Origin: a virus
Direction: 5' to 3' (one strand)
Virus genome (UHGV): UHGV-0010228
Length of the DNA stretch: 64,000 nucleotides
This document shows, one piece after another, positions 4,512-62,359 of the stretch. The translations under genes were made by a program, and so were the position numbers. The notes beneath the pieces were generated by a model. The model did no database searches. It was not told where the DNA came from and was given only the letters and a program-made list of their open reading frames with translations. The stretch's first letter is position 1, and each line of letters opens with the position of its first letter.

Positions 4512-4670
4512 ATGAGTATAGCAAATCAGACAAGTGGAGGAGCAAATTATCAGAATTCAAGTAGTGCAAATGATTTTAAATCTATAAAATTGAATCAAAC
4601 AAGTGCAATACATAATGAAACTATGAATTTCTCAGTTAAGGAGGAATTAAATGGGAAAGAAAACTGCTAA
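4512..4670 (+). CDS. possible small upstream ORF (52 aa) overlapping the topoisomerase start
   Basis: ATG with AAAGGAGA RBS (spacing 8); Ser/Asn-rich product MSIANQTSGGANYQNSS...; ends ~20 nt inside next gene in another frame; below the ORF-track size cut-off. Confidence 0.25.
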   Translation: MSIANQTSGGANYQNSSSANDFKSIKLNQTSAIHNETMNFSVKEELNGKENC

Positions 4671-7071
4671 AGAAGTAAATCTTGTAAGTAAAGACAATAT
4701 ATCATTTAAAGATGATAAGTTTGTATACTTACAAGATGAATTAGACGCGATTAGAGGCGCAATGCGAATGTACATCCCTAGAGGAGAAACTGATGGAGCA
4801 TTGCATTTATTCAAGGAAATTTTCAATAATGCATTAGATGAGTGTAATAATGAAAATTCTCCGGCTAATAAGATTATTGTAGAATTTCGTGAAAGTGAGT
4901 GTAAATTCTCAGTATCAGATGAAGGAAGAGGAATTCCTACAGATATATTAGTAGATGCAGTTATGAAGAAACATGTATCTACTAAATTAGTAGACTTATC
5001 CGAATCTCGTAATAAGAGACAGACTGGTATACATGGTGTAGGTATGACAGTAACCGCAGCATTGACTGATTATATGTCACTTACAACTTATAGAGAAGAT
5101 CATTGTAAAACTATAGAACTTATAGATGGTGTAATGAAAGAATATCCTATAAAGAAATTAAAGAAACCTAGACATGGATTAGAAGTTACTTTAGTACCAT
5201 CTGAGAAATATCTAGGTGAGATTAATCTTACTAACGATATTGTAGAGGATTTTATTAGACATATGGCATATATAGTACCAGATGGAATAATAATTGAATT
5301 CTATAAAGAAGGTCCTGATGGTAATATGGTATTTACAAAATATCATAATTTAGGATTGTCTGAAAATCTTCATTACTTATCATCATCATTAGAATTTCCA
5401 CCTATAGAATTAAAAATCATTACTGAAAATTTTGATTTATTTACAGCGTTTGCATACGATAAATCAACTGATGATATGATCTACGAATCGTATGCGAATT
5501 ATGTAATAACAACTGAAGGTGGAACCCATGAGCAGTTAGTAATTAGATCTCTATGTGAATATTTCACCAGAGAAGCAAAGAAAGCAGATGCTACATCTAA
5601 ATATGAAGTAGCATATGATGATTGTAAAAAAGGATTGTGTTTTGTAGTTAATATAGAGCATGTAAGACCTGAATTAGAAGGACAGCATAAATCTAAAATA
5701 TCAAATAAAGATATATTAGCAGATGGAAAGAAACCATTATTGGATGCGCTTCATACGTATTTTAGTAACAACCCTACTCAGTTGAAGAAAATAATTACTT
5801 ATCTTAGACAGATATCTAAAATAAGACAGGAAGCACATAAGATAAAAGGAGTTTCTAATAAGAAACCATCTACGTTCTTAGATGATGCTGAAATAAAAAT
5901 GTTTAAGAATGTGTCTGATAGAAAGTATAATGGATATAAAGAATTATATATAGCCGAAGGAGATTCTGCATTATCCGGTATAGATAGTGCAAGAAATCCA
6001 AAATATCAGGCAATATTTGGAGTTCAAGGTGTTATAGACAATACTCACGACTTAACATTAACTCAATTATTGCAGAAGAGAACTTTTAAGAATTTAGTTA
6101 AAATTCTTGGATGTGGTATTGGTAAAGATTTTGATATAACTAAATTGAGATTTAATAAGATCATAATAGCATGTGATAGTGATGTTGATGGATCTAATAT
6201 TACCTCTTTGATACTATGCTTCTTCTATATCTTTATGCCAGAACTAATTACACAGAATAAGGTATTTAGAGCAATGCCACCATTATATCTATTAGATAAG
6301 AAATCTCTTAAGAAGTTTTATAATGGCAGAGAATGGTTGTATGATAAACAGGAATATTATGATTTACTTAATACTATCATAGCTAATAATGCAACTATTG
6401 CTTTACCTAATAAATCTTCTAAAAAGAATGAAGTAAATATATTATCTAAGAAAGAAAAGAAAGAGTGGCTTAGTCTCAATTCTGAATATAATCTTGAATT
6501 ACTTAATCTTAGTAAGAAAGCAACATGTGATGAAACTATTCTAGAATATGTCTGCTGGTATTTACTAGAAGCCGATGGTAATGTGAAATTATTTAAGAAG
6601 CTCATTGAGAAAGAATTTAATGAAATGGAATTCGACCCATCAAATCAGGTTCTATTAGGTTCTTGGAATGGAAATTATTTCTCATTAATATGTGATAAGT
6701 TATTCTTAAAGAGTGCAAAGAGATTCATGAACTTATTATCACAGAATATTTCACTATTCGTATATTGTGGTGATAAGGACGAAAATGATATAGAGAAAAT
6801 GACTATAGGTCAATTCTTTAATCTCATGCACAGAAATTATAATGTTAAGATCGAGCAGAGGTTTAAGGGAATTGGAGAATCAGATGCAGATTTATTATTT
6901 GTAACTACAACCAATCCTAAACTTAGAACTCTCATAAAATTTGATCTTAATAGTATAGAAGCAACAAATGAGATGTTTGAATTGCTTCATGGTAAGTCCG
7001 AAAATATGAGAGAGCAGCGTAGGCAGTTACTTGAAAATGCTGAAATATCATATGCGGATATAGACAACTAA
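4651..7071 (+). CDS. type IIA DNA topoisomerase ATPase/TOPRIM subunit (GyrB/ParE / T4 gp39-like)
   Basis: GHKL ATPase N-box EIFNNALDE, G1 DEGRGIP, G2 GIHGVGMTV; TOPRIM ELYIAEGDSA and IIACDSDVDGSNI (DxD); AAGGAGG RBS. Confidence 0.9.
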   Translation: MGKKTAKEVNLVSKDNISFKDDKFVYLQDELDAIRGAMRMYIPRGETDGALHLFKEIFNNALDECNNENSPANKIIVEFRESECKFSVSDEGRGIPTDILVDAVMKKHVSTKLVDLSESRNKRQTGIHGVGMTVTAALTDYMSLTTYREDHCKTIELIDGVMKEYPIKKLKKPRHGLEVTLVPSEKYLGEINLTNDIVEDFIRHMAYIVPDGIIIEFYKEGPDGNMVFTKYHNLGLSENLHYLSSSLEFPPIELKIITENFDLFTAFAYDKSTDDMIYESYANYVITTEGGTHEQLVIRSLCEYFTREAKKADATSKYEVAYDDCKKGLCFVVNIEHVRPELEGQHKSKISNKDILADGKKPLLDALHTYFSNNPTQLKKIITYLRQISKIRQEAHKIKGVSNKKPSTFLDDAEIKMFKNVSDRKYNGYKELYIAEGDSALSGIDSARNPKYQAIFGVQGVIDNTHDLTLTQLLQKRTFKNLVKILGCGIGKDFDITKLRFNKIIIACDSDVDGSNITSLILCFFYIFMPELITQNKVFRAMPPLYLLDKKSLKKFYNGREWLYDKQEYYDLLNTIIANNATIALPNKSSKKNEVNILSKKEKKEWLSLNSEYNLELLNLSKKATCDETILEYVCWYLLEADGNVKLFKKLIEKEFNEMEFDPSNQVLLGSWNGNYFSLICDKLFLKSAKRFMNLLSQNISLFVYCGDKDENDIEKMTIGQFFNLMHRNYNVKIEQRFKGIGESDADLLFVTTTNPKLRTLIKFDLNSIEATNEMFELLHGKSENMREQRRQLLENAEISYADIDN

Positions 7072-7081
7072 AAGGAGATAT

Positions 7082-9556
7082 ATGGCAAAGAAAAAGAAAG
7101 ATTCCGGAATAGATACTAATTCTCTATGGTCCGGAATAGAAGATGATGCATTTATCAATGAATCAAATCTTAAAGAAGTTGATATTGCAGAATATAATCA
7201 AAAAGAAATGACAATATTTTCTGCGAATGTTAATTATTTTAGACAGATTATAAGATTATCTGATTCACTAAAACCTGTAGAAAGAAGAATACTCTATTCA
7301 ATGTTTAAGTCTGGGAATCGTCCTGGACTTAAACAGAAATCAAATCTCATAGTAGGTAATGCAGCATTGATACATAATCATGGTGATTGTTATCCAACAT
7401 TAGTATCGATGTCTCAAAGATGGAAAAAGATGGTGCCGTTGATTGATGGTAAAGGAGCATTTGGTTCTGAATCTGAAGAACGATATGCTGCTATGAGATA
7501 TACTGAAGCATCTATGAGTAAATATGCTTATGAATGTTTCTTTGAAGATTATGATGATGATTGTGTTGAGCAGTTATTCAATACAGCATCTGATAGTTAT
7601 GAACCTATGTCATTACCAGCTAAATTTCCGAATATTTTAGTTAATGGTGGATTGGGTTTTGCAGTTGGTAATAGTTTCTGTATTCCACCATTTAATATTG
7701 ATGATATAATAGCTAATTGTGAGAAAGTAATGAAGAATCCTAAAGCACCAGATGTATTTATGATTCCAGATTTTCCAACAGGTTGTTATATCGTAGATGA
7801 TGGTGAAACTTTAAAGACAATATGTGATACTGGTAAAGGAACTATAAAGATGAGAGGTGTTGTTGATGTAGTAGAAACTTCTAAGACTTGGGAGTTGAGA
7901 ATAACTGCATTACCATGGTTTGTAACATTATCATCTATAGAGACAAAGCTGGTTGATCTTCATAAAAATGGTACACTTCCTATTAAGGATTTACAGAATC
8001 ATTCACATCCAATAAAATTAGCTGATGGTAAAATAGGATCTAAAGTTGATTATCGAATTATAATAGATAAAACTCATGATCCATATGCTATATTAGAGAA
8101 GATATATAAGAATACAATGCTACAGAAATCCTTAGGTATAAACTTTAAAGTTGTGCTTGAAGAGCTAGCTATAAAGACTTTATCTCTAAGAGAGCTTATA
8201 TTATCTTGGATTGATGAAAGAAGATCATATAAAAGAAGATTATATAATAAGAAGATAACTAAGCTTAGTGCTAGAATTGACTTATTAGAAATTCTCTTAT
8301 ATTTATTGAAGGCTGAGAATATCGAGAAGACATTAAAGATAATTAAAGATTCTAATTCTGATGAAGTAGTAAAGAAACTCATGAAACATGGAAAGATGAA
8401 TTCTTATCAAGCATCTAAAATTGCTGATATGAAATTATCAGCATTTACTAAAGATGCTAGAAAGAAATATGCTGAAGAGAAAGCTGCTAAAGAAAAAGAA
8501 TTAGAAAAGGTATTATCAATAGTTAAATCTGAAAAGAAAATTGATAAGATTATTCTTGAAGAACTATATGATCTTAAGAAATACTCATCTCCAAGAAAAA
8601 CTCAGGTTATAACCGATGACACTGGAGAAAAGATTGCAGATATTGATTATAATATAATCATAACTAAAATGGGATTGATTAAAAAGATACCGTTTAATCC
8701 AGATCCAAATAAGAATTCTAACATGGGTTCATTTAAGAATTTTGATGCACCTATTAAAAGAATAACGTGTAATAATCTCAATAGTATTTTAATGTTTGAT
8801 AGTTTTGGTAGATATTCTGCAGTTCCAGTTTATAAGATAGACACAACTGAATTATCTCATCATGGTAATAATCTATATGATATTGCAGGTCTTAATGGTA
8901 GCGTAGTTACTGTAATGGATCAATTAGATGATAATTATATAGAGTATATGAGTAAGATCGGCGATTTATTTATGGTAACTTTAACTAGAAATGGGTATAT
9001 TAAGAAGACACCATTAGAAGCATATACTAAAATAAGGTCAACTAAGAATATTAAAGCATGTAAACTTAGAGATGATGATTCTCTTGTATGGGCTGGAGTT
9101 GTAGTTAGTAAAGAAGATATTATTATCTATTCAAAAAAAGGTAATTATGTTGCAATGAACATAGATGATATTTCTCCACAGGGAAAAGATTCTATGGGTG
9201 TAATTGGAATGAAGATGAAAGATCTTGATGAATGTGTTGGTATTGCATTTGTTGGAGATAAAGATCAGTATATTACAGTTATAACTGAAAAAGGTAATAT
9301 AAAGAAATGTGAGATTCAATATCTCACAACTGGTAAAGGTAAGAGATCATATCTTACATCATTAGATACAAATGATAATGTTGTATTTGTATCTGGTATG
9401 ATAGATAAGGAAAGTGTTATAGTCTTTACGAGGACAGATTATACAGAAATTGAAGCGACTATAATACCAACCCTATCTAGGAAAGCAAAATGTAAGAAGA
9501 TGATACCAGTGCCACAAGGTTCATCTATAATAAGATGTGACATAGTAAAGAGGTAG
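7082..9556 (+). CDS. type IIA DNA topoisomerase DNA breakage-reunion subunit (GyrA/ParC / T4 gp52-like)
   Basis: active-site tyrosine context AAMRYTEA identical to GyrA; follows B subunit by 10 nt; AAAGGAGA RBS. Confidence 0.9.
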   Translation: MAKKKKDSGIDTNSLWSGIEDDAFINESNLKEVDIAEYNQKEMTIFSANVNYFRQIIRLSDSLKPVERRILYSMFKSGNRPGLKQKSNLIVGNAALIHNHGDCYPTLVSMSQRWKKMVPLIDGKGAFGSESEERYAAMRYTEASMSKYAYECFFEDYDDDCVEQLFNTASDSYEPMSLPAKFPNILVNGGLGFAVGNSFCIPPFNIDDIIANCEKVMKNPKAPDVFMIPDFPTGCYIVDDGETLKTICDTGKGTIKMRGVVDVVETSKTWELRITALPWFVTLSSIETKLVDLHKNGTLPIKDLQNHSHPIKLADGKIGSKVDYRIIIDKTHDPYAILEKIYKNTMLQKSLGINFKVVLEELAIKTLSLRELILSWIDERRSYKRRLYNKKITKLSARIDLLEILLYLLKAENIEKTLKIIKDSNSDEVVKKLMKHGKMNSYQASKIADMKLSAFTKDARKKYAEEKAAKEKELEKVLSIVKSEKKIDKIILEELYDLKKYSSPRKTQVITDDTGEKIADIDYNIIITKMGLIKKIPFNPDPNKNSNMGSFKNFDAPIKRITCNNLNSILMFDSFGRYSAVPVYKIDTTELSHHGNNLYDIAGLNGSVVTVMDQLDDNYIEYMSKIGDLFMVTLTRNGYIKKTPLEAYTKIRSTKNIKACKLRDDDSLVWAGVVVSKEDIIIYSKKGNYVAMNIDDISPQGKDSMGVIGMKMKDLDECVGIAFVGDKDQYITVITEKGNIKKCEIQYLTTGKGKRSYLTSLDTNDNVVFVSGMIDKESVIVFTRTDYTEIEATIIPTLSRKAKCKKMIPVPQGSSIIRCDIVKR

Positions 9557-11437: not shown

Positions 11438-13474
11438 ATGAACAAATCAAGTTTATATGAAGACATTTATTCATCTACTAATATTATTAATGGTGATGAG
11501 TATCGTGAAATGATAACTACTATAGCAAATTTGGCTTCAGATATGGTAGTTAAGACATTAGGACCATATGGTGCTACAACAATCATTGATGATGGTAGTG
11601 GATATACATATCCTACTAAGGATGGTTGGTCAACATTAAATAGACTTAGATTTAATGATCCTATATATAATACATTATTTAATGTATTAAAACAGATTAG
11701 TTTTAATTCTGTAAGTACAGTTGGTGATGGTACAACAACTGCAATGGTTGGGGCTAGTCACTTCTTAAAGAATTTTGATGAGTATGAAAAACCAACTAAT
11801 TTTAGACAGGCAGACTTTATAGCAGCTATGAATAAAGTATCTGATGATATTGAGCATAGAATGCTCAATAGTTCTAGAGTTAAAGTTATTAACTCTGATA
11901 ATATTTCAGATGCTATATTCCCTATAGCATATACGGCAACTAACGGTAATGCCGAATTTGCAAATATTATTCAGGATATATATACACAGACTGAAAATCC
12001 TAATATTCATGTAGAAATGTCTAAAGGAGATAAGATATCGTATGTGATACAAGATGGATATAAATTTGATTCATCTGTATTAGATTTCAATGTATATATA
12101 AATGAAGACAATGGTACATACAAAAAAGACACTGTTACTAAGTGCGTGATATTTGATCATAACATCACATATCAGCAGCATAAGAATATTGTATTAGAAT
12201 TAACGAGATATGCTCAGACACATTCAACTGAAATAATAATAATGGCGCCATACTTTGATGATATTATTACAACTATGATATCTAATCAGATACAGCAGTT
12301 ATCTATGAAAGGTATGATTCCTAATATTATACTCATGCAGGTTCCTATTACAATGGATATCCATAAGCAAATACTTTCAGATATTTCTGTACTTATTAAT
12401 GCACCAATATTTGATACTGCAAGATTAAAGTTATTTAATATTCTTTATCACAATCAGACACATGATAAGGAAGAACAGATTGAAGATGATATTCTAGAAA
12501 TGGATCTTTTCAAAGAAAATAATCCTTCAGAATTATTATTTGCTTGCTTAGGTACTATAAGATCTATAGTAATTGATAAGAAGAATTCATATATTAAGAA
12601 TTATGATTCGATTATTGACCCTGTAAAGTATAATGCATTAATTAAGGATGCTACCGATAGATATCTTAAACTCAAAGAAGACGCCGATAAGACATTTAAT
12701 GGTCATCTTGATAAAGATTATATGTTTGCTAGAATGAGATATATAAAGCTTACTGGTAAGATGGGTACAATATATGTAGGTGGATTATCTGAATTACAGA
12801 AGAGATGTGATAAAGATGCTATTGACGATGCAGTTATGGTTTGTAAGTCAGCATATGAGCATGGTTATGTTAGAGGATTAACTCTCGAACTTATAACTTG
12901 CATTGCTGAAGCAATGACTGATATTAATGAAAATAATATAGAGATATCTGATTATGAAGCAATGGCATATAATTTATTATATAGAACTTTCTTAGATGTA
13001 TCACTTGATTGCCTTAAGAATAAATATGGTGATAGTGAAGTTGTATATGTTAAGGACTTACATGAGGATCCATCTAATGATGAATATCAGACAATAAGAA
13101 TTCAGGATATTGTACCATATTGTGCAGAGCATGATGCTGGATTTAATCTAGTTACCGATACAATTACAGATATTGAAACTACATCAGTTGTATCTTCGGT
13201 TGCCACTGATTTAGAGATTATGAAGGCAGTTATCAATATTCTTACAACTATTATAACATCTAACCAGTTCTTATCTATGGGTAAATCATATGATAGAAAG
13301 GTTAGTCATGATAGGGAATTAGACAGACTTGTTAGTGATAAGAGAGCAATCGCTCGTGCTCAGGCAGAAGAAGTAACCAATGTGCTTAAGACAAATGTGC
13401 TCGGTGACAAAGTTTTTTCACTTTTAAATCTTCCACAGAAAGCTGAGCAGATATCTATGAATTTAGAAGATTAA
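11438..13474 (+). CDS. phage-encoded GroEL-like chaperonin (Cpn60 family), enlarged (678 aa)
   Basis: TLGPYGATTIIDDGSGYTYPTKDGWS...VSTVGDGTTTAMVGA matches GroEL [26 protein letters not shown]...ANDAAGDGTTTATVLA including the invariant GDGTTT nucleotide-binding loop. Confidence 0.8.
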   Translation: MNKSSLYEDIYSSTNIINGDEYREMITTIANLASDMVVKTLGPYGATTIIDDGSGYTYPTKDGWSTLNRLRFNDPIYNTLFNVLKQISFNSVSTVGDGTTTAMVGASHFLKNFDEYEKPTNFRQADFIAAMNKVSDDIEHRMLNSSRVKVINSDNISDAIFPIAYTATNGNAEFANIIQDIYTQTENPNIHVEMSKGDKISYVIQDGYKFDSSVLDFNVYINEDNGTYKKDTVTKCVIFDHNITYQQHKNIVLELTRYAQTHSTEIIIMAPYFDDIITTMISNQIQQLSMKGMIPNIILMQVPITMDIHKQILSDISVLINAPIFDTARLKLFNILYHNQTHDKEEQIEDDILEMDLFKENNPSELLFACLGTIRSIVIDKKNSYIKNYDSIIDPVKYNALIKDATDRYLKLKEDADKTFNGHLDKDYMFARMRYIKLTGKMGTIYVGGLSELQKRCDKDAIDDAVMVCKSAYEHGYVRGLTLELITCIAEAMTDINENNIEISDYEAMAYNLLYRTFLDVSLDCLKNKYGDSEVVYVKDLHEDPSNDEYQTIRIQDIVPYCAEHDAGFNLVTDTITDIETTSVVSSVATDLEIMKAVINILTTIITSNQFLSMGKSYDRKVSHDRELDRLVSDKRAIARAQAEEVTNVLKTNVLGDKVFSLLNLPQKAEQISMNLED

Positions 13475-16054: not shown

Positions 16055-16095
16055 ATAAATATGGTATAGACTTTAAAGTCTATACCATATTTATT
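16055..16095. terminator. bidirectional terminator between convergent genes
   Basis: aatatggtatagactttaaagtctataccatatt perfect 14-bp stem. Confidence 0.7.
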
Positions 16096-19000
16096 ATTTA
16101 CAAAATTCGTCTAGTAAGTCATTTTCTAATGCACCTATTTTAGTATCATATATATCAAAATCTCTAATAGGAGATTTGATAATAACTCTTTTAGGTGTAT
16201 ATAAGCCATCAAATCTTTTTAGTATTGTAGTCTGAACTGTTTCTTTTATATAATGAAGAATATTGGATGTTTTATGAATGTATGGTTGTTCCACAGGGAC
16301 TCTATATCCATCTACAAATATTCTAGCAAACTTAAAGTTTATATTATCAGTATATTTTACAAATGTTGTATATGATGTATTATCTCCCCAAGTTAAGTTT
16401 TTATTATAAGAATCGGTCAAGAAGTTACTGTTATATTTATTATCGCTATACCAATCAAATTCTATAGTATCATAATCAATTGGTGTATGAACTAATACTA
16501 TACTATCAAGAGGATTTATCTTTGATGATATATTAGGGTCATTAGATCCTGCTCCTAAATTGGTTATTTTAAGAGTTACATTATCATTTGCATTTGTTGG
16601 CATTACTAATGTATATTCATCATTAGATAATAATCTTCCATTAATATACAATTCATATTTATTAGAATTAATTGATGCTCCATTTAATGGAATTAATATA
16701 CTATTAGTCTTTGATAATTTTTCGGCATTTATTATTGTTGTATTAGTTAAACTACCACCATTTGTTACTGTAATTCTACGATTCAATAAAGCATCATTCT
16801 TTAATTTAATTGAGAGATCTTTTAGACTTATATCTTTATGGGAAAGATCACCATCTGCGTAAGTTGGTATATCTGAAATATCATCAGATGATATTTCTAC
16901 ACCAGATTCTTTAAGAATGATTGGGATTGTATCTTTAGTTGCATACATTTCTTGTAACGATGTAAGTAAATATATAATATCTCGTTGGGTAGCAATAACT
17001 TCACGATATTCGCTAGTTGCAGGATCTTTATATTTATATTTATTAGCAGTTATTATGAATTCAAAATTACTCTTATCATAGATTTCGCCAGTAATTGAAT
17101 CGATAAACATAAGATCTTCTATTTTTATCTCATCAAGTTCACTATCTGAGAATATAAATTGATAGTCATTTTTCATTGTAAATTTAATATCGTCACTAAG
17201 CATATATTCTGATGATGATGTGCTTTTATTATAAATATCCGCAGTGATATCATCACCATTATGAACGTTTTCATATTCGCTAATTACTGTATTAGGATGA
17301 TATATTTTATCATATATGATTTTTTCTTTTATTTTCTTTACAGTATTATCACTAGATGCTGTATAAATATACTGGTTATATTGATCTGGTACTACTTCAT
17401 TTATTTCATCACTATGAGCTTCGAAACTCCAAAGCACTTTACCATTAGATGCTTTTAATTTATATAGTTTATGATCTGTAGATGCTACAAATACATATTT
17501 TTCATTTGCTGATAATGCAACTTTCCATATATTCTGTCCAATAGGAGATTCCCATATTAATGAACCATCACCAGAATTAAGCTTACGAACTATTCCATCT
17601 TCGCCACCACTATATAGTATAGTATTAGAAGAATCTATTATAAGTGAATATGTTGGTTTGGATGAATACGTTTTTTGCCATAATCTCCTAGAATCTTTAA
17701 CTCTAATTTTTGATATTGAATAATCATCGTCCGTTTCACCACTCACATATTTATATGTATAATAATCATCAATGCACAATGCATAAGTTCTATTTACTGC
17801 GGTTTTATAAACTGATTCATCTTTTCTAGTTTCAACGTCTATTATATAAACATTATTATCACTAGATGCAATATACAGATTATCACCATATATATCAGTT
17901 GCAACTGAATAAGGATATCCTACCGGTACTTTATATGTCCATTCAAGTTTACCTGTTTCACTCGATAATTTTCTTACAGTACCAATTTTATCTGCAGTAT
18001 ATATATCATCATCAATAAGTAATAAATCCAATACATCATCACTATTAGTATTTGTCCACACAACTTCCTGAGTATATATTTTACCAGAAGAACTATCAAT
18101 AGATTCTGATGCTAACATACGTTTTACTGGTAATTGATATCTACCATTTATATACGTTAAATTACCACCCATCTTAGTTTCTGTAAGGTATCTCAAAATA
18201 TAGTTAGTATTTTCTTTAATATTCTTTGCCTTAAATGATTTATTTATTGTATGAATTTCAAGATTATCAATAAAATTATACAATTTTACATATATATATG
18301 GATCACTATTTGCTAATATTAGTAATTTATCAAGCATATACCCTCGAATATCGCCTTTATAATCACTATCGATAAAATCATAATGGCCATAATCTGGAAT
18401 TATAGGATTATAATTCTTGATAGATAATATTTTATTATTACCAACCAATGTATTATATTCTGTACGGCCTGTTAAGTTATTCATAAATTCAATAGCATGA
18501 TTATCATATACATAATTAATATGTGACTGATTATATTCGTATAATTCAATATATATCGAATTATGATTTCCTTCATGTACAACTATACGTTTTATATCTC
18601 CTTGAGAATCTATAATGTAATTATACTTACCATTACTATCCATCATAGATTTTATAACTGGATATTGTGGATCATTAACCAATTCACTTATTATGGCTCC
18701 AGTTTCAGCATCATATTTGTCTAAATGACCATTCTGTTTACCAACTAATATAAACTTCTTATCTAATGACATATCAATACTATTGATCATTGATAAACAA
18801 CTACTATTTCTCCATGTGATAGTAAAAGTACTTGTATTATAACACAATAACTCACCAAGATAATTTCCAGTATATAATCTAGTATTATCAGAAGATAATA
18901 CAAAGTTATATAATCCACCAGAACCAGTTACAAATACCGTTGATAATATCGGATCACCTGTGCTTGCTAAATGCGAGCTAAAATATGTTTGAGTTATAGG

Positions 19001-20503
19001 ATCTGGCCCTACTCTACCACAGAATAAAGTTATATCATCATTAGAAATTTCTAATTTATATGCATCATTAGTTACTGAATTGATTGTGTTAGTCCATTCC
19101 ATTGCACCTTTATCAGTTGTATATGAATTAATTTCACCTGTAGATCTAGCAGTAAATACAGAGAAATTAGTTTTATTAACACAGACATCATTTATGCAAT
19201 GTTTATTATATGATATCGTCCATAATACTAATCCTAAAGAAGCCTCAATCTTAAGTAATGCACCATCACTACAACCTACATATAGGTATTTTTCATCGTA
19301 TGTAAGGGTATTACATGTGAATTCGCAATCATAATCATTTGTCCATAGAGTAATATTGTTATCAATACTGAAATATGATAATTTACTCTTTCCGTCTTTT
19401 GTAGATGATATATATACAAATTTATTATCTTTAGTAACTATAAAATTAGCATCACTTCCGAATTCAATATTTGCTAATGTTGTTACAATAACTTCGCTAT
19501 ATGATAATGAATTTGAGAAGTTATATAAATCAGGAAAAGCAAATTCTGAATATATATCACTAGGAACTCTACCTGCATGAACTTCCATATCTCTATTATA
19601 GTCATATACTCGAATATTCTTAATACTAGTAGTATACTCAGAATAGTTAGTTGATATAATAGGTAACGTTTCATCAGATGCCTGATGAGTGATGATATTA
19701 GTTCTATGAGGTCTATTTATTATGTAAATATCCGATACTGATGATATAACACTCTTATCATTAAATATTTTTGAATATGTAAAACTTATATTTGATTGAG
19801 AAATACCATTACATACAGCTGGAGTTACATAATATAATTTAGAAGTTCTCCCCATGGGCACATACAAATCCCAACTATTTGACTCAATTATTCCTGATCT
19901 CATTAATGATGATCTAGGTATTGTTATCTGTGATTTATCACCCGAAGATCCAATAGTCTTAGTAGTAACTTTATATACAGATGCGTATTCTTCATACCAT
20001 AAATTAATAAATACATTATCAATTATGTAATCGGATATAGTTTCATCAGACAATATGTCTTTAGATATAAACATTATAGTCTTATTATATTTAGTAATTA
20101 CAAATGATATATCTAATATAGAATATTTTCCGAATTCACACATTATTTTATAACTAAATATATGATTAGTATCTTTAAATATGTCCATTAATGATATTGA
20201 CATATCATATAATTTATTATATGCTCTAATAAATTTATACCTATCTCTGATAGGTATAATATTATCATCAAATATATAAGAATAAGTACCAACTGCATAT
20301 CCATATTTAGCATTAATATCTTTTCTGATTTTAAAATCATCTATAGATATAGTGCATTCGAAATTTGGAATTAATGAAGCTTCCATTATTCTTGATCTAG
20401 AATAATTCTCATGCATGGCCTGATGCCAAAAATATGCAATCAATTTATCATCATATCTACTATTGAAATAATATGATGCATTACAAAAATAAGGGTTTTT
20501 CAT
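16094..20503 (-). CDS. large (1469 aa) protein with two PQQ-type beta-propeller repeat regions; candidate virion/tail-fibre or adhesin protein
   Basis: repeated ~40-aa units of the PQQ/BamB beta-propeller type (KLYKLKASNGKVLWSF, VRKLNSGDGSLIWESPIG, LDKYDAETGAIISEL, LLKIEASLGLVLWTISY, VYIIDVETRKDESVYK); AGGAGG RBS. Confidence 0.75.
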   Translation of the reverse strand: MKNPYFCNASYYFNSRYDDKLIAYFWHQAMHENYSRSRIMEASLIPNFECTISIDDFKIRKDINAKYGYAVGTYSYIFDDNIIPIRDRYKFIRAYNKLYDMSISLMDIFKDTNHIFSYKIMCEFGKYSILDISFVITKYNKTIMFISKDILSDETISDYIIDNVFINLWYEEYASVYKVTTKTIGSSGDKSQITIPRSSLMRSGIIESNSWDLYVPMGRTSKLYYVTPAVCNGISQSNISFTYSKIFNDKSVISSVSDIYIINRPHRTNIITHQASDETLPIISTNYSEYTTSIKNIRVYDYNRDMEVHAGRVPSDIYSEFAFPDLYNFSNSLSYSEVIVTTLANIEFGSDANFIVTKDNKFVYISSTKDGKSKLSYFSIDNNITLWTNDYDCEFTCNTLTYDEKYLYVGCSDGALLKIEASLGLVLWTISYNKHCINDVCVNKTNFSVFTARSTGEINSYTTDKGAMEWTNTINSVTNDAYKLEISNDDITLFCGRVGPDPITQTYFSSHLASTGDPILSTVFVTGSGGLYNFVLSSDNTRLYTGNYLGELLCYNTSTFTITWRNSSCLSMINSIDMSLDKKFILVGKQNGHLDKYDAETGAIISELVNDPQYPVIKSMMDSNGKYNYIIDSQGDIKRIVVHEGNHNSIYIELYEYNQSHINYVYDNHAIEFMNNLTGRTEYNTLVGNNKILSIKNYNPIIPDYGHYDFIDSDYKGDIRGYMLDKLLILANSDPYIYVKLYNFIDNLEIHTINKSFKAKNIKENTNYILRYLTETKMGGNLTYINGRYQLPVKRMLASESIDSSSGKIYTQEVVWTNTNSDDVLDLLLIDDDIYTADKIGTVRKLSSETGKLEWTYKVPVGYPYSVATDIYGDNLYIASSDNNVYIIDVETRKDESVYKTAVNRTYALCIDDYYTYKYVSGETDDDYSISKIRVKDSRRLWQKTYSSKPTYSLIIDSSNTILYSGGEDGIVRKLNSGDGSLIWESPIGQNIWKVALSANEKYVFVASTDHKLYKLKASNGKVLWSFEAHSDEINEVVPDQYNQYIYTASSDNTVKKIKEKIIYDKIYHPNTVISEYENVHNGDDITADIYNKSTSSSEYMLSDDIKFTMKNDYQFIFSDSELDEIKIEDLMFIDSITGEIYDKSNFEFIITANKYKYKDPATSEYREVIATQRDIIYLLTSLQEMYATKDTIPIILKESGVEISSDDISDIPTYADGDLSHKDISLKDLSIKLKNDALLNRRITVTNGGSLTNTTIINAEKLSKTNSILIPLNGASINSNKYELYINGRLLSNDEYTLVMPTNANDNVTLKITNLGAGSNDPNISSKINPLDSIVLVHTPIDYDTIEFDWYSDNKYNSNFLTDSYNKNLTWGDNTSYTTFVKYTDNINFKFARIFVDGYRVPVEQPYIHKTSNILHYIKETVQTTILKRFDGLYTPKRVIIKSPIRDFDIYDTKIGALENDLLDEFCK

Positions 20504-27150: not shown

Positions 27151-28464
27151 ATGTCTAAACTTGAACTGTCTAAAATAAGTAGTAATAGTCCTGCTAGTGG
27201 AGTATTTTTTAATTATTCTACAGATAAATATGGTAAGTCTATTGATTATAGAAATGTAGATAATCGTCTTAATACTATTGGAGTTGATAAAAGTGAACAA
27301 AACACTGATCGTGAAAGCTTGTATTGGGTTGAGCCTAAAGTAATGCCACGCGGACAAAGTAATATAGTATTACAGGCAATGAATGATGGATTTAGAAGTC
27401 CACATGAAGATTATTTTAATTTTAATAGATTTTATAATGTAAATTTAACAGATGGAATACCATCTAATAGACACTATGTTTTTATGTGCCGGCCAGATTT
27501 ATATTTACTTCAATTATATAACCCATCATCACCATCTCAAAGATATGGTTTAAGTAGCGAAAGTAGAGTTGCGGGTGATCCATTATTTAGAAAATTGTGG
27601 TATGAAAATCCTCTATTAATAGAATCGTTAACGGCAGAGTTTGATGTATATAATATAAATAATCAAATCAAAGATTCTATGGTTGCAGTTAATAGATCTG
27701 GGTATGGTAACTCATTGCATGTTGACCCTATGACTGATAAAGCTGGTAACCATTTAACAACACATTCACTATTGCCATTTTTAACAGGAAGGGTTCAATC
27801 AATACAAATTCCTGATTTTGCTATTAAAACATATCAGATGACTCAGCCATATACCAAATACGGATTGCCTATGTCATTAACAGCAATCGAATCAACTACA
27901 GGTGGTTCATTTGATATTACTTTTAGAGAAGATGCACAATATAGTGTAACTAAATTATTCTATGCGTGGGTATATTATATGGATGGAGTTATGAGAAATA
28001 AATTCTCTCCTAAATTAAAATATATGAGATTTAATGCATTAGATTATGCCACATCTATATATGATATAATAGTTGGTGATGATGGCGAAGAGATTGTGTG
28101 GTTTGGTAAATATACAGGTTGCATTCCAACAAATGTACCAGTATCAGATTTAGGATTTAATAAAGGTGGAAGTCCTATTGATTCTGTAAGTATAACATTT
28201 AATTACTTTAATTATGAAGCTATGAATCCTGAGATATTGCTAGATCTTAACTATAATTCATTAGGATATAATTATATGGAGAAATATGGTACTAAAATAT
28301 TTGACGAATCTGACTGTCTATTAGATCATATGAGTACGTATAACCCAGATTTAGTTGGACCTGCGAGTGGTTATGTTGGAAGACCATTTGTGGTATCATA
28401 TCATCCTTTAAGAGAAACTGAAAAGACAAAACATAAACTATGGTGGGCAAGACCAAGTTATTAA
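27151..28464 (+). CDS. hypothetical protein (possibly structural)
   Basis: 437 aa, AAGGGGG RBS; no motif recognised. Confidence 0.55.
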   Translation: MSKLELSKISSNSPASGVFFNYSTDKYGKSIDYRNVDNRLNTIGVDKSEQNTDRESLYWVEPKVMPRGQSNIVLQAMNDGFRSPHEDYFNFNRFYNVNLTDGIPSNRHYVFMCRPDLYLLQLYNPSSPSQRYGLSSESRVAGDPLFRKLWYENPLLIESLTAEFDVYNINNQIKDSMVAVNRSGYGNSLHVDPMTDKAGNHLTTHSLLPFLTGRVQSIQIPDFAIKTYQMTQPYTKYGLPMSLTAIESTTGGSFDITFREDAQYSVTKLFYAWVYYMDGVMRNKFSPKLKYMRFNALDYATSIYDIIVGDDGEEIVWFGKYTGCIPTNVPVSDLGFNKGGSPIDSVSITFNYFNYEAMNPEILLDLNYNSLGYNYMEKYGTKIFDESDCLLDHMSTYNPDLVGPASGYVGRPFVVSYHPLRETEKTKHKLWWARPSY

Positions 28465-28510
28465 AATAAGAAAAGAATGAGAGATAACATATGTTATCTC
28501 TCATATTTAA

Positions 28511-29029
28511 TTACTTTCTTGCTTTACCGGCACTAGCCTGTGAATTAATTTCACGATCAATCTTTTCATTGATTGACTTGCCAGACTTAGATTCTAAGTT
28601 AGTTGCTTTTCTCTTAGAATTCATCATAATTCTCTTAGCTTCAGTCTTAGCTCTTGCACCATACTTAGCATTGATCTTACTCTTAGCATCAAGCATAAGA
28701 TCTCTATACTTCTTATACTTAGTAAAGAGAGAATCTCCGGCTTTCTTAGCAAGTGCAATCGCAACTCTACCCTGAATTCTATTAAGATCGGCAGCCTTAG
28801 AATCCTTAATAAGGATTCTTCTAGATGCTTCCATTGCAGAATCTGCATCATCAATTATGCCATATATAGCCATTTCAACTGCAGCATCATTAATCAGATC
28901 GTTAAATTCTTCATCTGTAGAGCAATTCTCTCTAATAGCTGCGAGGACAATTGAAGATTCAGTTGCAGGATCATCAATAGTGAGCTCGTCAATAGACGTT
29001 GGCATGTTTAAGTCAGAAAGAAGTCCCAT
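28511..29029 (-). CDS. hypothetical helical/charged protein, member of MG[IL]LSD-leader family (start revised to Met with AAAGGAGG RBS)
   Basis: revised start MGLLSDLNMPTS... directly preceded on minus strand by AAAAGGAGGTAATTATACA; track ORF 28511..29071 begins at GTG upstream; contains AIYGIIDD and SAMEA motifs related to the family motif. Confidence 0.5.
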   Translation of the reverse strand: MGLLSDLNMPTSIDELTIDDPATESSIVLAAIRENCSTDEEFNDLINDAAVEMAIYGIIDDADSAMEASRRILIKDSKAADLNRIQGRVAIALAKKAGDSLFTKYKKYRDLMLDAKSKINAKYGARAKTEAKRIMMNSKRKATNLESKSGKSINEKIDREINSQASAGKARK

Positions 29030-29194
29030 TGTATAATTACCTCCTTTTAGGATTTTATTCATATTAAACACTTATTATCATAAATTTATTGTATTTGTTT
29101 ATATTGGTGTTAATTAAATTCCTGCAACTTCGATAATTATAAATAAAAAATATGAAATATATATTATTAAATTGAACTGAGAAGGAGGATTACA

Positions 29195-31219
29195 ATGGAA
29201 GCAAAATTTATTACTCATTGGAAAGATGAAATGAAAAGATCTATTAGATTGAAATATTATGATAAAGAATTATCAGAAGTTAAATTAGATCAATATCTTA
29301 ATAAGATTATTGAAAAAAGAATAAATAATCGGGGTATAGCATTAGTAAATAACTATACTAATACAGTTGCTAAATCTAATATATTATCTATAATCGATAT
29401 TATAGAAGAGAATAATTTAATTACTGCCGCAGGTGGATGCTTATTCTTACAACATGGTGTTAGAAGAAATTTATTATATGAATTTATCCAATATCTAAAG
29501 GCAGAAAGAAATGCCGCTAAAAAAAGACGTAAAAAATATGACAAAGGAACTCTCGAGTGGTTAATGGAAGATATAACTCAGTTAAATGTAAAATTAATCA
29601 TGAATTCTCTATATGGATGCATGGGATATCCGGGATTTATTCTATTCAACTTATTCTTAGCTGAAGCCATTACAAATCAAGGTAGACATATTATTACATC
29701 ATGCACTGCTGCTATTGAAAATTATATGGGTAGCGCATTTAGTTTAACATCTGAAGGCGAAGCCATTACATATATTAATAATATAGATAGAGAATTTTAT
29801 CTTAATGATTATGATAAATTAATTGATACTTCAATATTTGATGATACTAGTAATGTGTATGACTTATGTTATAAGCATATGATTAAGCATTGTCATTTTA
29901 ATATATCTGAATCGTTTAATTATGTTTTACATGATATCATATATAAGATGCCTTTAAAAGAGGTTATTGTCTTATATTATAAGAATAATCTGATCAGATT
30001 TAATAATAATCAATTTATGAAAGATAATATAAAATATATAATCGACAATAATGGTAATCTTGTATTTGGATCGATTGATTATCTTAGTAATGATAAGATG
30101 AAAGAATGTGCTACCCGTTTATTAGATATATATAACATATTCGTTATATATAACTATCCTATATATGATAAAGTAAGAAAAGCAATGTATCAGCCTAAGA
30201 CGAAAACATTGTATACTGATACTGATTCAGTATTTATATCATTTGATGAATTAGTTAGATATACTATGAATATTTACAATAATGAAGCAGCTCCTAATCT
30301 ATCTATAGATGAAACTAAAACTACAGCTGCATTCTTACATTTTATATATGTAGATTTAATGCTAGATATGGCATTGAAGACATTATGTAAGACTAACAAC
30401 ATTGCTGAAGAGCATTCAAAGTTACTAATAATAAAAAATGAATTCTTTTATTCTCGTATAGTTTTCATGAACGCTAAGAAAAGATATATTGCATATGCAT
30501 TATTCCAAGAGGGTCAGTTTATTAAAGATCCTAATGAAGCATTAGATATAAAGGGATTAGATTTTAAGAAAGCATCTACGAATCCATATCTAAAAGAGTT
30601 CTTTACAACTATATCAATGAATGATATCATGTTGGCAGATAATATTAATCCTAGATTATTATTTAAAAAGATGATAGATTTGAAAAAGACTATTGAGGAA
30701 GGTATTCGGCATGGTGATAGACGATTCTTTAAACAGAGTAATTGTAAAACTCTTGATAATTATAAGAATCCATATAGTACCCAGCAAGTTGTGGCTACAA
30801 TATTATGGAATACATTAGTTCCCGAAAGTGCACTGGAGTTACCAGCAGAAGTATATGTAGTTCCTATTAAATCAATGAAGTTTGATAAACCACCTGAAGG
30901 AAAAATGTCATTAAAGACCCCATTAGATTATCCTAATATAAGAAAATTTGCAGAAGATTTTCCGGAAGAATATGAACGACTTCATAGAGAGATATATATG
31001 AATGAGAATATTCTTATTAGGCATATGAGTTTAAACTCTATAGCATTACCTAGAAATAATGATGTTAAAATTCCTGATTATATAGTCTCATTAATAAACT
31101 TTAATCAGATCACAAAAGATGCATTAGCTTTATTCTTACCAGTATTGAATTCAATAGGATTGAAGAGTTTACCAACTACAACGACAGATGAGCATATGAG
31201 TAACATTGTAGAATTATAA
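29195..31219 (+). CDS. family B DNA polymerase, C-terminal (palm/fingers/thumb) fragment lacking motif A and exonuclease domain
   Basis: motif B KLIMNSLYG (KxxxNSxYG), motif C LYTDTDSVF (YGDTDS), KKRY motif NAKKRYIAY in canonical order; own GAAGGAGG RBS and Met; nothing polymerase-like upstream. Confidence 0.8.
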   Translation: MEAKFITHWKDEMKRSIRLKYYDKELSEVKLDQYLNKIIEKRINNRGIALVNNYTNTVAKSNILSIIDIIEENNLITAAGGCLFLQHGVRRNLLYEFIQYLKAERNAAKKRRKKYDKGTLEWLMEDITQLNVKLIMNSLYGCMGYPGFILFNLFLAEAITNQGRHIITSCTAAIENYMGSAFSLTSEGEAITYINNIDREFYLNDYDKLIDTSIFDDTSNVYDLCYKHMIKHCHFNISESFNYVLHDIIYKMPLKEVIVLYYKNNLIRFNNNQFMKDNIKYIIDNNGNLVFGSIDYLSNDKMKECATRLLDIYNIFVIYNYPIYDKVRKAMYQPKTKTLYTDTDSVFISFDELVRYTMNIYNNEAAPNLSIDETKTTAAFLHFIYVDLMLDMALKTLCKTNNIAEEHSKLLIIKNEFFYSRIVFMNAKKRYIAYALFQEGQFIKDPNEALDIKGLDFKKASTNPYLKEFFTTISMNDIMLADNINPRLLFKKMIDLKKTIEEGIRHGDRRFFKQSNCKTLDNYKNPYSTQQVVATILWNTLVPESALELPAEVYVVPIKSMKFDKPPEGKMSLKTPLDYPNIRKFAEDFPEEYERLHREIYMNENILIRHMSLNSIALPRNNDVKIPDYIVSLINFNQITKDALALFLPVLNSIGLKSLPTTTTDEHMSNIVEL

Positions 31220-31224
31220 AAAAA

Positions 31225-31290
31225 ATAAAGAATGACGATTGGAGTATACGTCAATCTGTGCGCCATTACAGATTTACAAGTACTCCAATC
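31225..31290. terminator. compound (nested) stem-loop downstream of polymerase gene
   Basis: gattggagtat...acgtc aatctgt gcgccatt acagatt tacaagt actccaatc. Confidence 0.45.
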
Positions 31291-31427
31291 GTCTAACAAA
31301 TTAGATAATAACTATAAAGAGGGGCGGATATTTATATCCGATAGATATTAACACCTTAATAATATATAGATGAAAAATTAATATATTACGATGAAATAAT
31401 AATAGAGTAGAATGATATCATTCTACT

Positions 31428-32663
31428 CTATTTTATAAACATTGCACTAGTTATTGGTAAAAAGTATTCGCCTTCTGCAGATAAATTCATTACGTATTTA
31501 CTGATTCTATACTGACCATTCACATTTGTCATATTTACTTTAGTATTTGAAATTGATACAGTAAATGTTTTGTTTGGTGTTAATGCAGACATTATAAGTG
31601 AATTGCTATTAAGTGTTAAAATACTCTGATTTTCATTTATTTTTTTAGCAATTTGTGAAGCCGTATTAGCACCACCATTGTAAACATAGGTTACAGTATT
31701 AGAACCGAATTTACCTCCTGTAGTAGTACTAATACTACCAGATGCTGCATCGATTACTTGTATATTACTAACAGTTGTATCATTACTTTTATTCTCAAAT
31801 TTGTATGACCCCTCAGGGATTATTACATTATAAGTCTTATTTTTTCCGTCTATATACATTCCTGATATCGCAGACGTTTTTTCATTATCGCCAGATAGTG
31901 ATAACAGATTAATTGTACGATATTCATTAGTATAATATGCTGTGCATTTAGTCTGTTTATCTATTATATAGCCGCGGTTTAGATCGAAAAATATTATAGT
32001 CCCATTAGGATGTAGATTGTATTCAAAACAAATTCTTTTTATTTGATCTATTAATGGAATAGGAACTAATTTAAAATCTGAATAAGATCTATTCTGAGTA
32101 GGTGGGGATAATAGAATATTATTATATCCACCCTGATTTAACACATATGTCAATGCATCTACGGGGGTACAACTAGAAAATATGGCATTAATAGTTTTAT
32201 TTAAATTGAGATAATAAGTTTCATTTAATAGTAAAAGATCAATCATAGCATATTCGTTATACATATATCCTTTACCATATGTCTTATCAGCTTTTTCTAC
32301 ATTGATCTGAATATCTTCATTGCCACTAATACTTGAATTTGGCATTAATACATAGTATTTACCGGTAATATCAGTATTCCATACAACTGTACTTGCAGAT
32401 ACCTGCTCATCGAATAATCCATATTTCAATGTTAATGACATTCGGATATTTGTTGGATTTCGTTGCATATTCCGATACAACCAATTTGGTACGTTTAATG
32501 TCACTTGGAAATATGGTAATACTGTATTATCATAATCCTTTTCAACATAAATATTACTTACCATTGGAGAAGCAACTTCAAACGGTGTTTCATTTCCTAC
32601 ATATATAAATACGTTTTCAAGAAGATATCTAACTTTCTTAAAATAAGCATTCTTAAGATCCAT
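31428..32663 (-). CDS. hypothetical protein (Asn/Ser/Thr-rich; possibly structural)
   Basis: 411 aa, AGGAGGTATA RBS. Confidence 0.55.
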   Translation of the reverse strand: MDLKNAYFKKVRYLLENVFIYVGNETPFEVASPMVSNIYVEKDYDNTVLPYFQVTLNVPNWLYRNMQRNPTNIRMSLTLKYGLFDEQVSASTVVWNTDITGKYYVLMPNSSISGNEDIQINVEKADKTYGKGYMYNEYAMIDLLLLNETYYLNLNKTINAIFSSCTPVDALTYVLNQGGYNNILLSPPTQNRSYSDFKLVPIPLIDQIKRICFEYNLHPNGTIIFFDLNRGYIIDKQTKCTAYYTNEYRTINLLSLSGDNEKTSAISGMYIDGKNKTYNVIIPEGSYKFENKSNDTTVSNIQVIDAASGSISTTTGGKFGSNTVTYVYNGGANTASQIAKKINENQSILTLNSNSLIMSALTPNKTFTVSISNTKVNMTNVNGQYRISKYVMNLSAEGEYFLPITSAMFIK

Positions 32664-34040: not shown

Positions 34041-34343
34041 TTATACTTTATGTGTAGAAATGAGAAGCAATAATGGGGTAATGATAGACCAAAAAAAAAA
34101 ACAAAGGATAACATGAAAGTAGGTTTGTCATACATAGCATACAGCAATGGAGTAGTTGAAACGTAGCTATTTTTAACACCGGATTAGTAAACCTTTAACG
34201 GGGAGTAAAAGGTTTTATTGTGAGACTTTTTTGTACTTTCTCTATTAGAATGATCTATCATTCCTTCCCATTATATTATGTGTTATATCTGGAATATAAA
34301 AACACACAGATAAATTTTTACTAGTTTGAAAGGAGGAGCTGAA

Positions 34344-35815
34344 ATGATTGATATTAGTATGGAAGCGGTTATTAATCCTGAACCAGAAGATGGATCAGAA
34401 CCAATTCCTATGCAAATTGAATTAATAACTGATGCTATGATCACTAAAGCTAAATTAAAACCGGTTACTAATCCGATCTCATTTGTTCGTGGATCAGAAC
34501 CAACTCCTGATGGAATATTTTCAGAAGAAATATTTGGTAGTGATACCGCTAGTAGATCTAGACAGTTTGCATATATAGATCTACATCAGAAATTTTTCCA
34601 ACCATATGTATATGAAGTAATAAAAACCCTTGATCGTAAAATCGATAAGGTTGCATCTGGTAAAGGATATTGGCACATCAATGGTAGAGGTGAATTGATT
34701 GAGATTAAAGATCCGAAAGATTCACGATATGATGAGATGGCTACTGGATTAAATTGGGTTATTGAAAATTTTGATAAGATTAAATTTAAGACATCAGATG
34801 CAATAACTCGACAGGATAAACTTAGGTTCCTTAAGAATATTTCGGATGAAGAAAAGTTTGTATCTAAATGGATCGTTATACCAGTTACTTATAGAAATTT
34901 TATTGAAAAGAATGGTAGAATGGCAGTAACTGATATAGATGATATTTATACAAAATTAATATCCTATACCAATGGTATAGGTAATGATCCATTTGATTAC
35001 ATGAATAATCAATTATTATATAATATCCAGATGGAATTAGTAAAACTCCGTAAGTTAGGCGGAGATCTTATTAGAGGTAAGCATGGTTTTATGCATAAAG
35101 CTATGCTAGGTAAATCTACAGATTTAGGAGTCAGAGATGTTATATCTCAGATGTCTCTAAATCATTGTGAACGTCCGGAGGATAATCCTGTGGATATATT
35201 TCATAGTGGAGTACCATTAAGTAAATGCCTAGTATTAGGATATAACTTTATACTGAAATGGTGCTTAGATTTCTTCGAAAATAATTTCAAAGATAAAAAA
35301 GAACTTATAGTTTTTAAAGAAAAAGATGGTGTAAGAACTGAAAAACAAAAAATACCTATAAAGGATCAAACTATAATTTATACTAAATCGTTTTTAGATA
35401 AAAAGATTAAGCAATATCAGAACACACCAGCTATAAGATTCGATCCTATCGTGTTATATACAATAGATGGGAATGAACTCCCATTAACATTTGTAGGGTC
35501 ATTCGGTTCTATTAATAGTAGGGATATTGATGCAGCATCAATATCTAGAAGAAATATGACATGGACAGATTTGTTTTATATGGCTGCAATGGATACAATT
35601 TCGGATAAATATATATATTCAACTAGATTCCCAATAACGAGTTATAGTTCAATATTTCCGTCACTTTGTACTCCATTAACAACTATAAAAACGATACCTG
35701 CAATAATAAATAATCGAGTATATCCGAATTATCCATATGTAGAATTAGATATTGATAAAGGTGATATAGTTACTAGATTTATAGATACATTATGCATCAG
35801 TGATTTATTCCTTGA
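34344..35815 (+). CDS. multisubunit RNA polymerase beta-prime homologue, N-terminal half, exon 1 (ends inside catalytic DxDGD motif)
   Basis: ATG 34344 after AAGGAGGAG (track start 34326 is TTG); DGIFSEEIFGS ~ beta-prime DGLFCxRIFGP; QFAYIDLHQKFFQPYVY ~ RMGHIELAAPVAHIWF; MLGKSTDLGVRDVI ~ LLGKRVDYSGRSVI; TRFPITSYSSIFP ~ NRAPTLHRLGIQAFEP; homology stops at ...CISDLFLD. Confidence 0.8.
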
Positions 35816-36217
35816 TGCAATAGGCGGCGACTGGACTGCCATCATGGTCGCCTACAGTAGTAATACTGTACAAGAAAAGTCAGGTGAACTCCTAACCAGA
35901 GGTGTCTATCAGATGATAGGCTAACGGTCGAAGTTAGATAAGTATGTATACATATCCTAGCCAGATATGGTCCTGTTATATTATAACAGTATATAACGAA
36001 TACGCTTCTTAAGAGAGTCTAAGGTCCAGTTTATATTGGATAGCTTTGAGAATACCGTGCCAAGACTTGATATTATTCAAGTAAGGTGTAGAGACTAATA
36101 GTAGAATATGAGATGGAAAAGCTCATATACGAAGTGCCAGACCACCCCCACTATTTTATATAATAGAGGGTGAATGAGATAGTCCACATAGAGTTTTCTC
36201 TCGAGAATCCTCGAAAG
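35816..36217 (+). ncRNA. group I self-splicing intron (ORF-less, 402 nt) inside the beta-prime gene; boundaries +/- a few nt
   Basis: GC-richer segment with in-frame stop (35922); matches to group I core elements R (GAGACTA, 36091-36097) and S (GATAGTCC, 36178-36185) able to form P7, P8-like hairpin atatgag...ctcatat between them; ends in G36217; flanking exons are collinear with beta-prime. Confidence 0.75.
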
Positions 36218-62358: not shown

Positions 62359-62359
62359 C
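62353..62359 (+). promoter_or_regulatory. candidate programmed +1 ribosomal frameshift site CCC_UAA_C
   Basis: last sense codon CCC (Pro) followed by UAA; +1 frame reads CCU AAC and is open for 364 codons beginning with a Pro/Thr linker. Confidence 0.5.

Follow-up and report, generated by a model that had tools for sequence, protein, structure and literature searches.

The gene at 29195-31219 (+ strand) of the 64-kb window, by which we mean the whole stretch of viral DNA analysed here, encodes the C-terminal fragment of a split family B DNA polymerase (PolB), a protein of 674 aa which carries neither the exonuclease motifs nor the catalytic motif A. With a probability of roughly 85%, we hold it to be the C-terminal subunit of a two-polypeptide replicative polymerase of the type found in phages AR9 and PBS1, in the Staphylococcus jumbo phages, and in Yersinia phage phiR1-37.

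The polymerase fragment and its boundaries

Translation of the fragment begins at an ATG which is preceded, at a distance of 5 nt, by a ribosome-binding site (AAGGAGGA, 29182-29189, +). An in-frame stop lies 8 codons 5' of this ATG, and the reading frame can therefore conceal no N-terminal extension. The original prediction, made from the letters of the window, had credited the gene with its own ribosome-binding site and Met, and had placed motif B, motif C, and the KKRY motif in their canonical order; both statements held on closer analysis. Motif B of the fingers, KLIMNSLYG, occupies aa 133-141 (29591-29617, +); motif C, YTDTDS, with the catalytic aspartates D342 and D344, occupies aa 340-345 (30212-30229, +); and the primer-contacting KKRY motif follows at aa 428-431 (30476-30487, +). 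Residues K133, N137, Y140, and G141 of motif B, both motif C aspartates, and the whole of KKRY are invariant in 31 relatives sharing 43-62% identity with the protein. The product thus comprises the fingers, the thumb, and the rest of the palm of a family B polymerase. Its first 90 residues (29195-29464, +) form a conserved N-terminal module, modelled as two helices (4-20 and 28-42) and a beta-hairpin (47-62) followed by a GGGCLF strand, in which W9, K10, L35, I39, N52, and G81 are kept throughout the family, AR9 included.

Profile searches place the protein among polymerases. In Pfam it matched PF00136 (E=5e-18, profile positions 103-262 of 453 against aa 77-252) and PF20286, the divergent family B DNA polymerase or divDNApol (E=3.6e-25, positions 349-690 against aa 291-656), while its matches in PHROGs were to DNA polymerase families only (best E=3e-52). 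A profile combining the protein with its relatives picked out, in the PDB, the fingers domains of Thermococcus-type PolBs (Tgo) and of Pol alpha, with E-values down to 1.7e-13. An AlphaFold2 model of the 674-aa protein had a mean pLDDT of 82, and the PDB matches listed for it by Foldseek were exclusively family B polymerases, among them RB69 gp43, Pol alpha, ASFV, and monkeypox (MPXV) F8. The TM-scores of these matches were low, which we attribute to the fragment comprising several domains and to the long helical segment that separates motif B from motif C.

The exonuclease motifs and motif A had been described as missing from the frame, and Pfam, regular expressions, and a profile of the N-terminal fragments of relatives agreed. 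The exonuclease domain PF03104 had no match in the protein at E<=1, and neither regular expressions nor profiles located motif A; on the PF00136 profile, motif A lies at approximately 45-91, ahead of the first matched position, 103.

Relatives of the fragment in sequenced phages

By tblastn, residues 5-672 are collinear with AR9 gp152 (E=7e-53), a similarity well outside what chance would give, and the protein is, judged by sequence, the orthologue of gp152. The best-matching sequenced phages, all at approximately 26% identity over the full length, are AR9 and PBS1 (gp152, annotated as "DNA-polymerase catalytic subunit"), Bacillus phage BpSp, the Staphylococcus jumbo phages, and phiR1-37 (g167). 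The comparison with split polB genes of jumbo phages, which had been proposed as a check, was accordingly a favourable one, the fragment being collinear with its counterparts in AR9, PBS1, the Staphylococcus jumbo phages, and phiR1-37. At the DNA level, the GenBank phage collection INPHARED contained no phage similar to the window.

In AR9, the other half of the polymerase is gp132, a protein of 554 aa which carries Exo I-III and the motif A sequence DFDLSSLYPS, and which ends about 65 aa later. Its counterpart in phiR1-37, g170 (576 aa), is built alike, with Exo I-III, DEDLSSMYPS, and an end some 70 aa beyond. Both AR9 polB-fragment genes are expressed continuously during infection (PMC5312081).

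The AR9/PBS1 pair (gp132 and gp152; genes 19 and 40 in PBS1) resembles our case in the length of the C fragment, in its PF00136 boundary, in the PF00136 and PF20286 architecture, in the jumbo phage setting with multisubunit RNA polymerase (RNAP) genes and, for AR9, in having a divergent minus-strand neighbour (the virion protein gene g153 beside g152). The two settings differ in the place of the N fragment: AR9 encodes it 15 kb further downstream, on the strand of gp152, whereas none was found here in the 43 kb that follow our gene or in the 37 kb that precede it. They differ also in source, as AR9 and PBS1 have a Bacillus host, while the present sequence, only ~26% identical at the protein level, comes from AT-rich gut metagenome contigs. 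The phiR1-37 system (g170 with g167/g164) shares with ours a fission shortly past motif A. Its C part, at a similar ~26% identity, is annotated in pieces (g167 and g164), unlike the 674-aa protein here, and its two halves are encoded on opposite strands with 1.7 kb between them.

Metagenomic relatives and the case against decay

The C fragment recurs in metagenomes as 446 clusters, the 120 listed having lengths of 661-737 aa. The N fragment is likewise abundant (771 metagenomic representatives at E<1e-30), and all but two of the 150 representatives listed are standalone proteins, of approximately 400-820 aa. On contigs where N/C pairs could be traced, the two genes were separated by 12 kb (IMGVR 3300045988_183239), 13, 20, 32, 43, 59, 75, 113, and about 138 kb; with phiR1-37 included, the distances across relatives run from 1.7 to ~138 kb, with the genes on the same or on opposite strands. 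A separate gene carrying the exonuclease motifs and motif A was present in every relative in which both genes were traceable.

Two explanations had been offered at the outset: a polymerase split into two polypeptides encoded at distant loci, or an N-terminal part separated from this one by a long intervening element. The former is favoured by the relatives, since all those characterised (AR9 gp132/gp152, PBS1 19/40, the Staphylococcus jumbo phages, and phiR1-37 g170/g167) and many from metagenomes encode the half with the exonuclease and motif A in a gene of its own.

The lack of motif A and of the exonuclease domain, both of which a single-chain PolB needs, could also mark the frame as a decaying remnant in a phage whose complete polB does the work from another locus, and a degenerate pseudogene of this kind had been named as the finding that would overturn the prediction. 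We consider this highly improbable. The ratio dN/dS against a 96%-identical relative is 0.036 (194 nucleotide and 30 amino-acid differences), which indicates purifying selection, and the fragment is therefore no pseudogene. The invariance of the catalytic residues in the 31 relatives described above and the retention of the same boundaries in the 446 clusters, as judged from the 120 with listed lengths, likewise argue against decay, as does AR9, in which the two fragments alone were found as annotated polB-type genes.

The split point

On the PF00136 profile, the N fragments of relatives cover positions from about 20 to 111, those of the AR9 type spanning 45-91, the stretch which holds motif A. 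The C fragments start between 94 and 103 (AR9 gp152 at 103, phiR1-37 g167 at 94, and the protein described here at 103). As the N fragments end at approximately 91-111, the two halves abut on the profile, and the fission point falls some 70-90 residues past motif A, inside the palm.

Single-chain relatives also occur, namely P0478 (1224 aa) and P0455 (1279 aa). Residues 5-674 of our protein align to 587-1224 of P0478, directly after its N part; the alignment runs end to end, and no extra residues are present at the junction. Given that the fused relatives align in this manner with the N and C fragments taken together, the alignments point to plain gene fission as the origin of the family or, conversely, to the fused forms having arisen by fusion.

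The same junction bears on the suggestion that the halves are rejoined, either after translation by a split intein or through a trans-spliced split group I intron. Such arrangements are known: split inteins exist in the PolB of Nanoarchaeum equitans and in cyanobacterial DnaE (PMC2677866), and phages of this group often carry group I introns, as in the AR9 vRNAP beta' gene and in the N-fragment gene of an IMG/VR relative (L027). However, no intein or Hint family of Pfam matched the protein at E<=1, none matched the N or C fragments of its relatives, the conserved N-terminus offers no nucleophile-type junction, and an intein is further disfavoured by the end-to-end alignment with P0478. Against an intron, an Rfam search of 28300-31700 with a threshold as lax as E<=1 gave nothing resembling one, and rejoining of either kind sits poorly with a reading frame that is closed off upstream by a stop codon and opens with an ATG behind a ribosome-binding site. 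We regard rejoining as already largely refuted and give it very little credence.

Genome setting

The window derives from a jumbo phage of the AR9/phiKZ type with a multisubunit RNAP. Its genes encode topoisomerase II subunits, a GroEL-like protein, virion proteins, a tail-tube-like protein, and the major head protein, along with an RNAP subunit fragment at 34326-35924. The latter matched phrog_2986, 'RNA polymerase beta subunit' (E=9e-68); despite this label, we read it as beta'-like. The exact polB protein was located on six contigs from NCBI, ENA, and Logan assemblies, the longest of 256,540 bp; the phage, found in gut metagenomes, has a genome of approximately 256.5 kb. The major head protein of the window is carried by a further contig, k99_271523 of ENA ERZ27270443 (231,335 bp). 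Proteins of the window also occur in Hadza gut samples.

The fragment is surrounded, on either strand, by structural genes with no relation to it. The upstream one (28511-29071, -), which had been described as an unrelated minus-strand gene, is so: its product, of 186 aa as listed and 172 aa in public assemblies, has no relationship to polB. Terminator-like hairpins lie at 28477-28504 and, with a stem of 14 bp, at 31401-31432 (-), in the gap separating the polB stop from the gene at 31428-32663, which converges on it.

This setting is difficult to reconcile with the second of the explanations offered at the outset, a single gene broken by a long intervening element with its N exon upstream on the same strand. 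That explanation draws some plausibility from the T4-like phages 25 and 44RR, whose gene 43 is interrupted by 2-3 kb of inserted DNA (PMC2988022, PMC2677866), and from the mere 1.7 kb between the halves in phiR1-37. The unrelated structural neighbours on both strands and the flanking hairpins argue against it here, as do the halves of relatives, which lie up to 138 kb apart and sometimes on opposite strands. No N-terminal coding sequence was found on either strand for approximately 37 kb upstream and 43 kb downstream, there is no signal of an intein or intron, and the fragment starts from its own ribosome-binding site. We therefore discount an interrupted gene almost entirely.

The search for the N-terminal partner

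The original prediction called for an ORF with Exo I-III and motif A to be sought in the rest of the genome, and none was present in the part covered, namely the window and about 18 kb of flanking sequence out of ~256.5 kb. Within the 64-kb window, tblastn with phiR1-37 g170 detected no N half, and regular expressions for motif A and Exo I, including the loose form D-x-D-x4-[YF]-P, had no match in any frame. A profile built from the full-length members (>=520 aa) among 120 N-terminal fragments gave nothing better than E=0.19 against the six-frame translation with filters off. The flanks beyond the window were reached via identical proteins; approximately 8 kb to the left and 10 kb to the right were free of an N gene in a run that included AR9 and phiR1-37 as positive controls. 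With the window and its flanks lacking an N gene, any such gene must be separated from the fragment by upwards of ~37 kb on the 5' side or ~43 kb on the 3' side.

Relatives gave a similar picture. In the nearest (31-49% identity), there was no N fragment within 10 kb of the C gene, and the N gene was not nearby in the closer C-fragment relatives P0247 and P0242. We also scanned IMG/VR with four patterns, consisting of three N-fragment alignments and one 138-nt degenerate pattern, each of which returned its best 80-120 matches, in an order set by similarity to other clades. Those clades yielded many N/C pairs, and among the matches listed there was no N fragment from the nearest clade's three near-complete genomes (L015, L016, and L018). 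The same 138-nt pattern had 33 matches in GTDB genomes, none of them on the 256,540-bp contig. Two candidates were rejected: an HMM match in L410 (E=0.021) was spurious, and a 92-member N cluster, paired at first sight with a C cluster of 92 members, has its IMG/VR member on a contig that carries no C fragment resembling ours.

We nonetheless infer that a partner gene exists in this phage genome, on account of the orthology of the fragment and of the chemical need for the motif A aspartate. It is conceivable, if unlikely, that the gut clade has replaced the canonical N fragment, or that the fragment has diverged beyond the reach of profiles and motifs, and that the C fragment now works with a non-canonical partner. 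The scans of the three near-complete genomes fit such a scenario, as does the lack of any N-fragment cluster assigned to this clade among the matches listed, but absence from the best 80-150 matches, ranked toward other clades, is weak evidence. Moreover, the C fragment keeps the N-terminal module which abuts the N part in fused relatives, and catalysis requires the motif A aspartate. Were this scenario true, a PolB active site would be completed by a new kind of subunit.

A proposed two-chain polymerase

Under the two-polypeptide reading which we favour, a second gene elsewhere in the ~256-kb genome would encode a protein of approximately 550-690 aa. We would expect an SbcC-like gene beside it and, a few genes downstream, a large gene that may encode the portal, which is the arrangement in AR9, Staphylococcus phage DC4, and L412. 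This chain would supply the N-terminal domain, the 3'-5' proofreading exonuclease (Exo I-III), and the palm strand bearing motif A (D-x-D-x-x-S-L-Y-P-S), while the chain described here would supply the rest of the palm, with the motif C beta-hairpin and KKRY, the fingers with motif B, and the thumb. The two would associate non-covalently as a heterodimer, and the metal-binding aspartates of motif A on one chain and of motif C on the other would come together in a single composite active site. The module at aa 1-90 is a likely contact or docking surface for the N fragment.

The heterodimer is proposed by analogy with gp43A and gp43B of phage 25 and with the split PolBs of archaea, as the literature searched contained no report of the biochemistry or structure of an AR9-type split PolB. 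According to PMC2988022, citing Petrov et al. 2010, the phage 25 chains co-purify and are active. The T4-related Aeromonas phages 25 and 44RR (43A/43B) thus offer, as proposed here, two separately translated chains of a family B replicative enzyme. In those phages, however, the cistrons are adjacent, with 2-3 kb or a homing-endonuclease gene between them, whereas no N half lies within 37-43 kb of our fragment; further, theirs is a T4-type PolB, while the present protein belongs to a divergent clade related to AR9 and phiKZ.

Archaea offer further precedents. In Methanothermobacter thermautotrophicus and N. equitans, as in the AR9 family, the two parts of PolB come from unlinked genes (PMC2677866). 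N. equitans rejoins its halves by protein trans-splicing, whereas no intein was found here, and both archaeal systems belong to cellular lineages. A third point of comparison is the divergent PolB of the phiKZ type (PF20286), which the C-terminal two thirds of our protein match; the phages concerned belong to one group, the Group 1 jumbo phages (PMC7824862). The phiKZ enzyme is described as having no fused exonuclease, the exonuclease being encoded elsewhere (Iyer et al. 2021, PMC7824862). In AR9-type phages, and in the phage described here, the detached piece takes motif A as well.

Implications

The split of the AR9 type is already known, from the annotations of phiR1-37 and AR9/PBS1 and from the AR9 transcriptome paper, and the finding on this window is, by itself, an ordinary one. 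What the window adds is a deep-branching lineage from gut metagenomes, approximately 26% identical to AR9. The gene is suitably annotated as 'DNA polymerase B, C-terminal (catalytic) subunit', rather than as a truncated gene or a pseudogene. Taken with its relatives, it shows that the break has stayed at the same place in many lineages, with fused forms as rare exceptions, and this combination may help in picking a model pair for structural work. In this family, the two catalytic aspartate motifs reside on separate chains whose genes may be as far as ~138 kb apart, and the polymerase active site would, as we propose, exist in the heterodimer only.

Genomic context of the C-terminal fragment

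UHGV-0010228 encodes part of a multisubunit RNA polymerase subunit at 34326-35924 (+) of the window, and this 532-aa fragment marks it as a phage of the AR9/phiKZ type. The product matches phrog_2986 (E=9e-68), a family labelled 'RNA polymerase beta subunit', though we read it as beta'-like. In the Bacillus jumbo phage AR9, an nvRNAP beta' gene likewise lies near the gene for the C-terminal fragment of the family B DNA polymerase (PolB), and local synteny around this fragment may therefore be partly kept between the two genomes.

Other genes on the plus strand of the window encode a two-subunit topoisomerase II (GyrB-like, 4651-7071, and ParC/GyrA-like, 7082-9556), a 678-aa GroEL-like chaperonin (11438-13474), and a major head protein (60601-62358; phrog_20655, E=5e-39). 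The last of these overlaps by 59 nt with a 382-aa ORF (62300-63448, +), and GC content across 60601-63448 is 35-37%, compared with ~29% elsewhere. A 1469-aa protein encoded on the minus strand (16094-20503) had no PHROG match and carries many precomputed beta-propeller, WD40 and PQQ Pfam matches, which is unusual in a phage. Between the convergent genes at 27151-28464 (+) and 28511-29071 (-) lies a palindromic hairpin (28477-28504) with a perfect 12-bp stem and T-runs on both strands, which is likely a bidirectional terminator.

Polymerase architecture among relatives

The nearest IMG/VR relatives are the contigs L015 (236,671 bp), L016 (219,918 bp) and L018 (254,592 bp), with 38-45% identity in the C fragment and a GC content of 28-31%. 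None of the three appeared among the matches listed in any search for the N fragment, which carries the exonuclease and motif A; their N fragments possibly fall beyond the matches listed, or possibly have divergent motifs.

Several clades divide the N fragment further, between two ORFs, as on the contigs L295 (2635-4140 and 4100-4720), L296 (2602-4125 and 4665-5228), L307 (2578-4059 and 4880-5278) and L321 (2500-4134 and 4584-5147). The exonuclease ORF covers positions 24-442 of the N-fragment profile, while motif A resides on a piece of ~190 aa covering positions 443-558, the break between them being 450-820 nt or a frame shift. Rfam returned no intron matches between the pieces on these four contigs, and the arrangement may mean that PolB comes in three pieces in these clades, or that an intron has gone unrecognised. 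Group I introns occur in an IMG/VR relative, L027, where one splits the N-fragment gene (6009-6224, -; RF00028, 110 bits) and two more lie downstream of the C-fragment gene (17001-17262 and 17344-17588, +).

Single-chain members of the family are rare. Two of them, P0478 (1224 aa) and P0455 (1279 aa), carry PF03104, PF00136 and PF20286 on one polypeptide; this fused form is either ancestral or the outcome of secondary fusion.

Gene order around the N fragment

An SbcC-like ATPase gene, the N fragment, a few small genes and a large gene follow one another in AR9 (L006, g139-g128) and on the Logan gut contig L412 (5910-16279), an order shared by Staphylococcus phage DC4 (PMC10638138). In both AR9 and DC4 the large gene encodes the portal vertex protein; its L412 counterpart encodes an unannotated 765-aa product. 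This order of ATPase, N fragment and large gene is a handy anchor for locating N fragments in new genomes.
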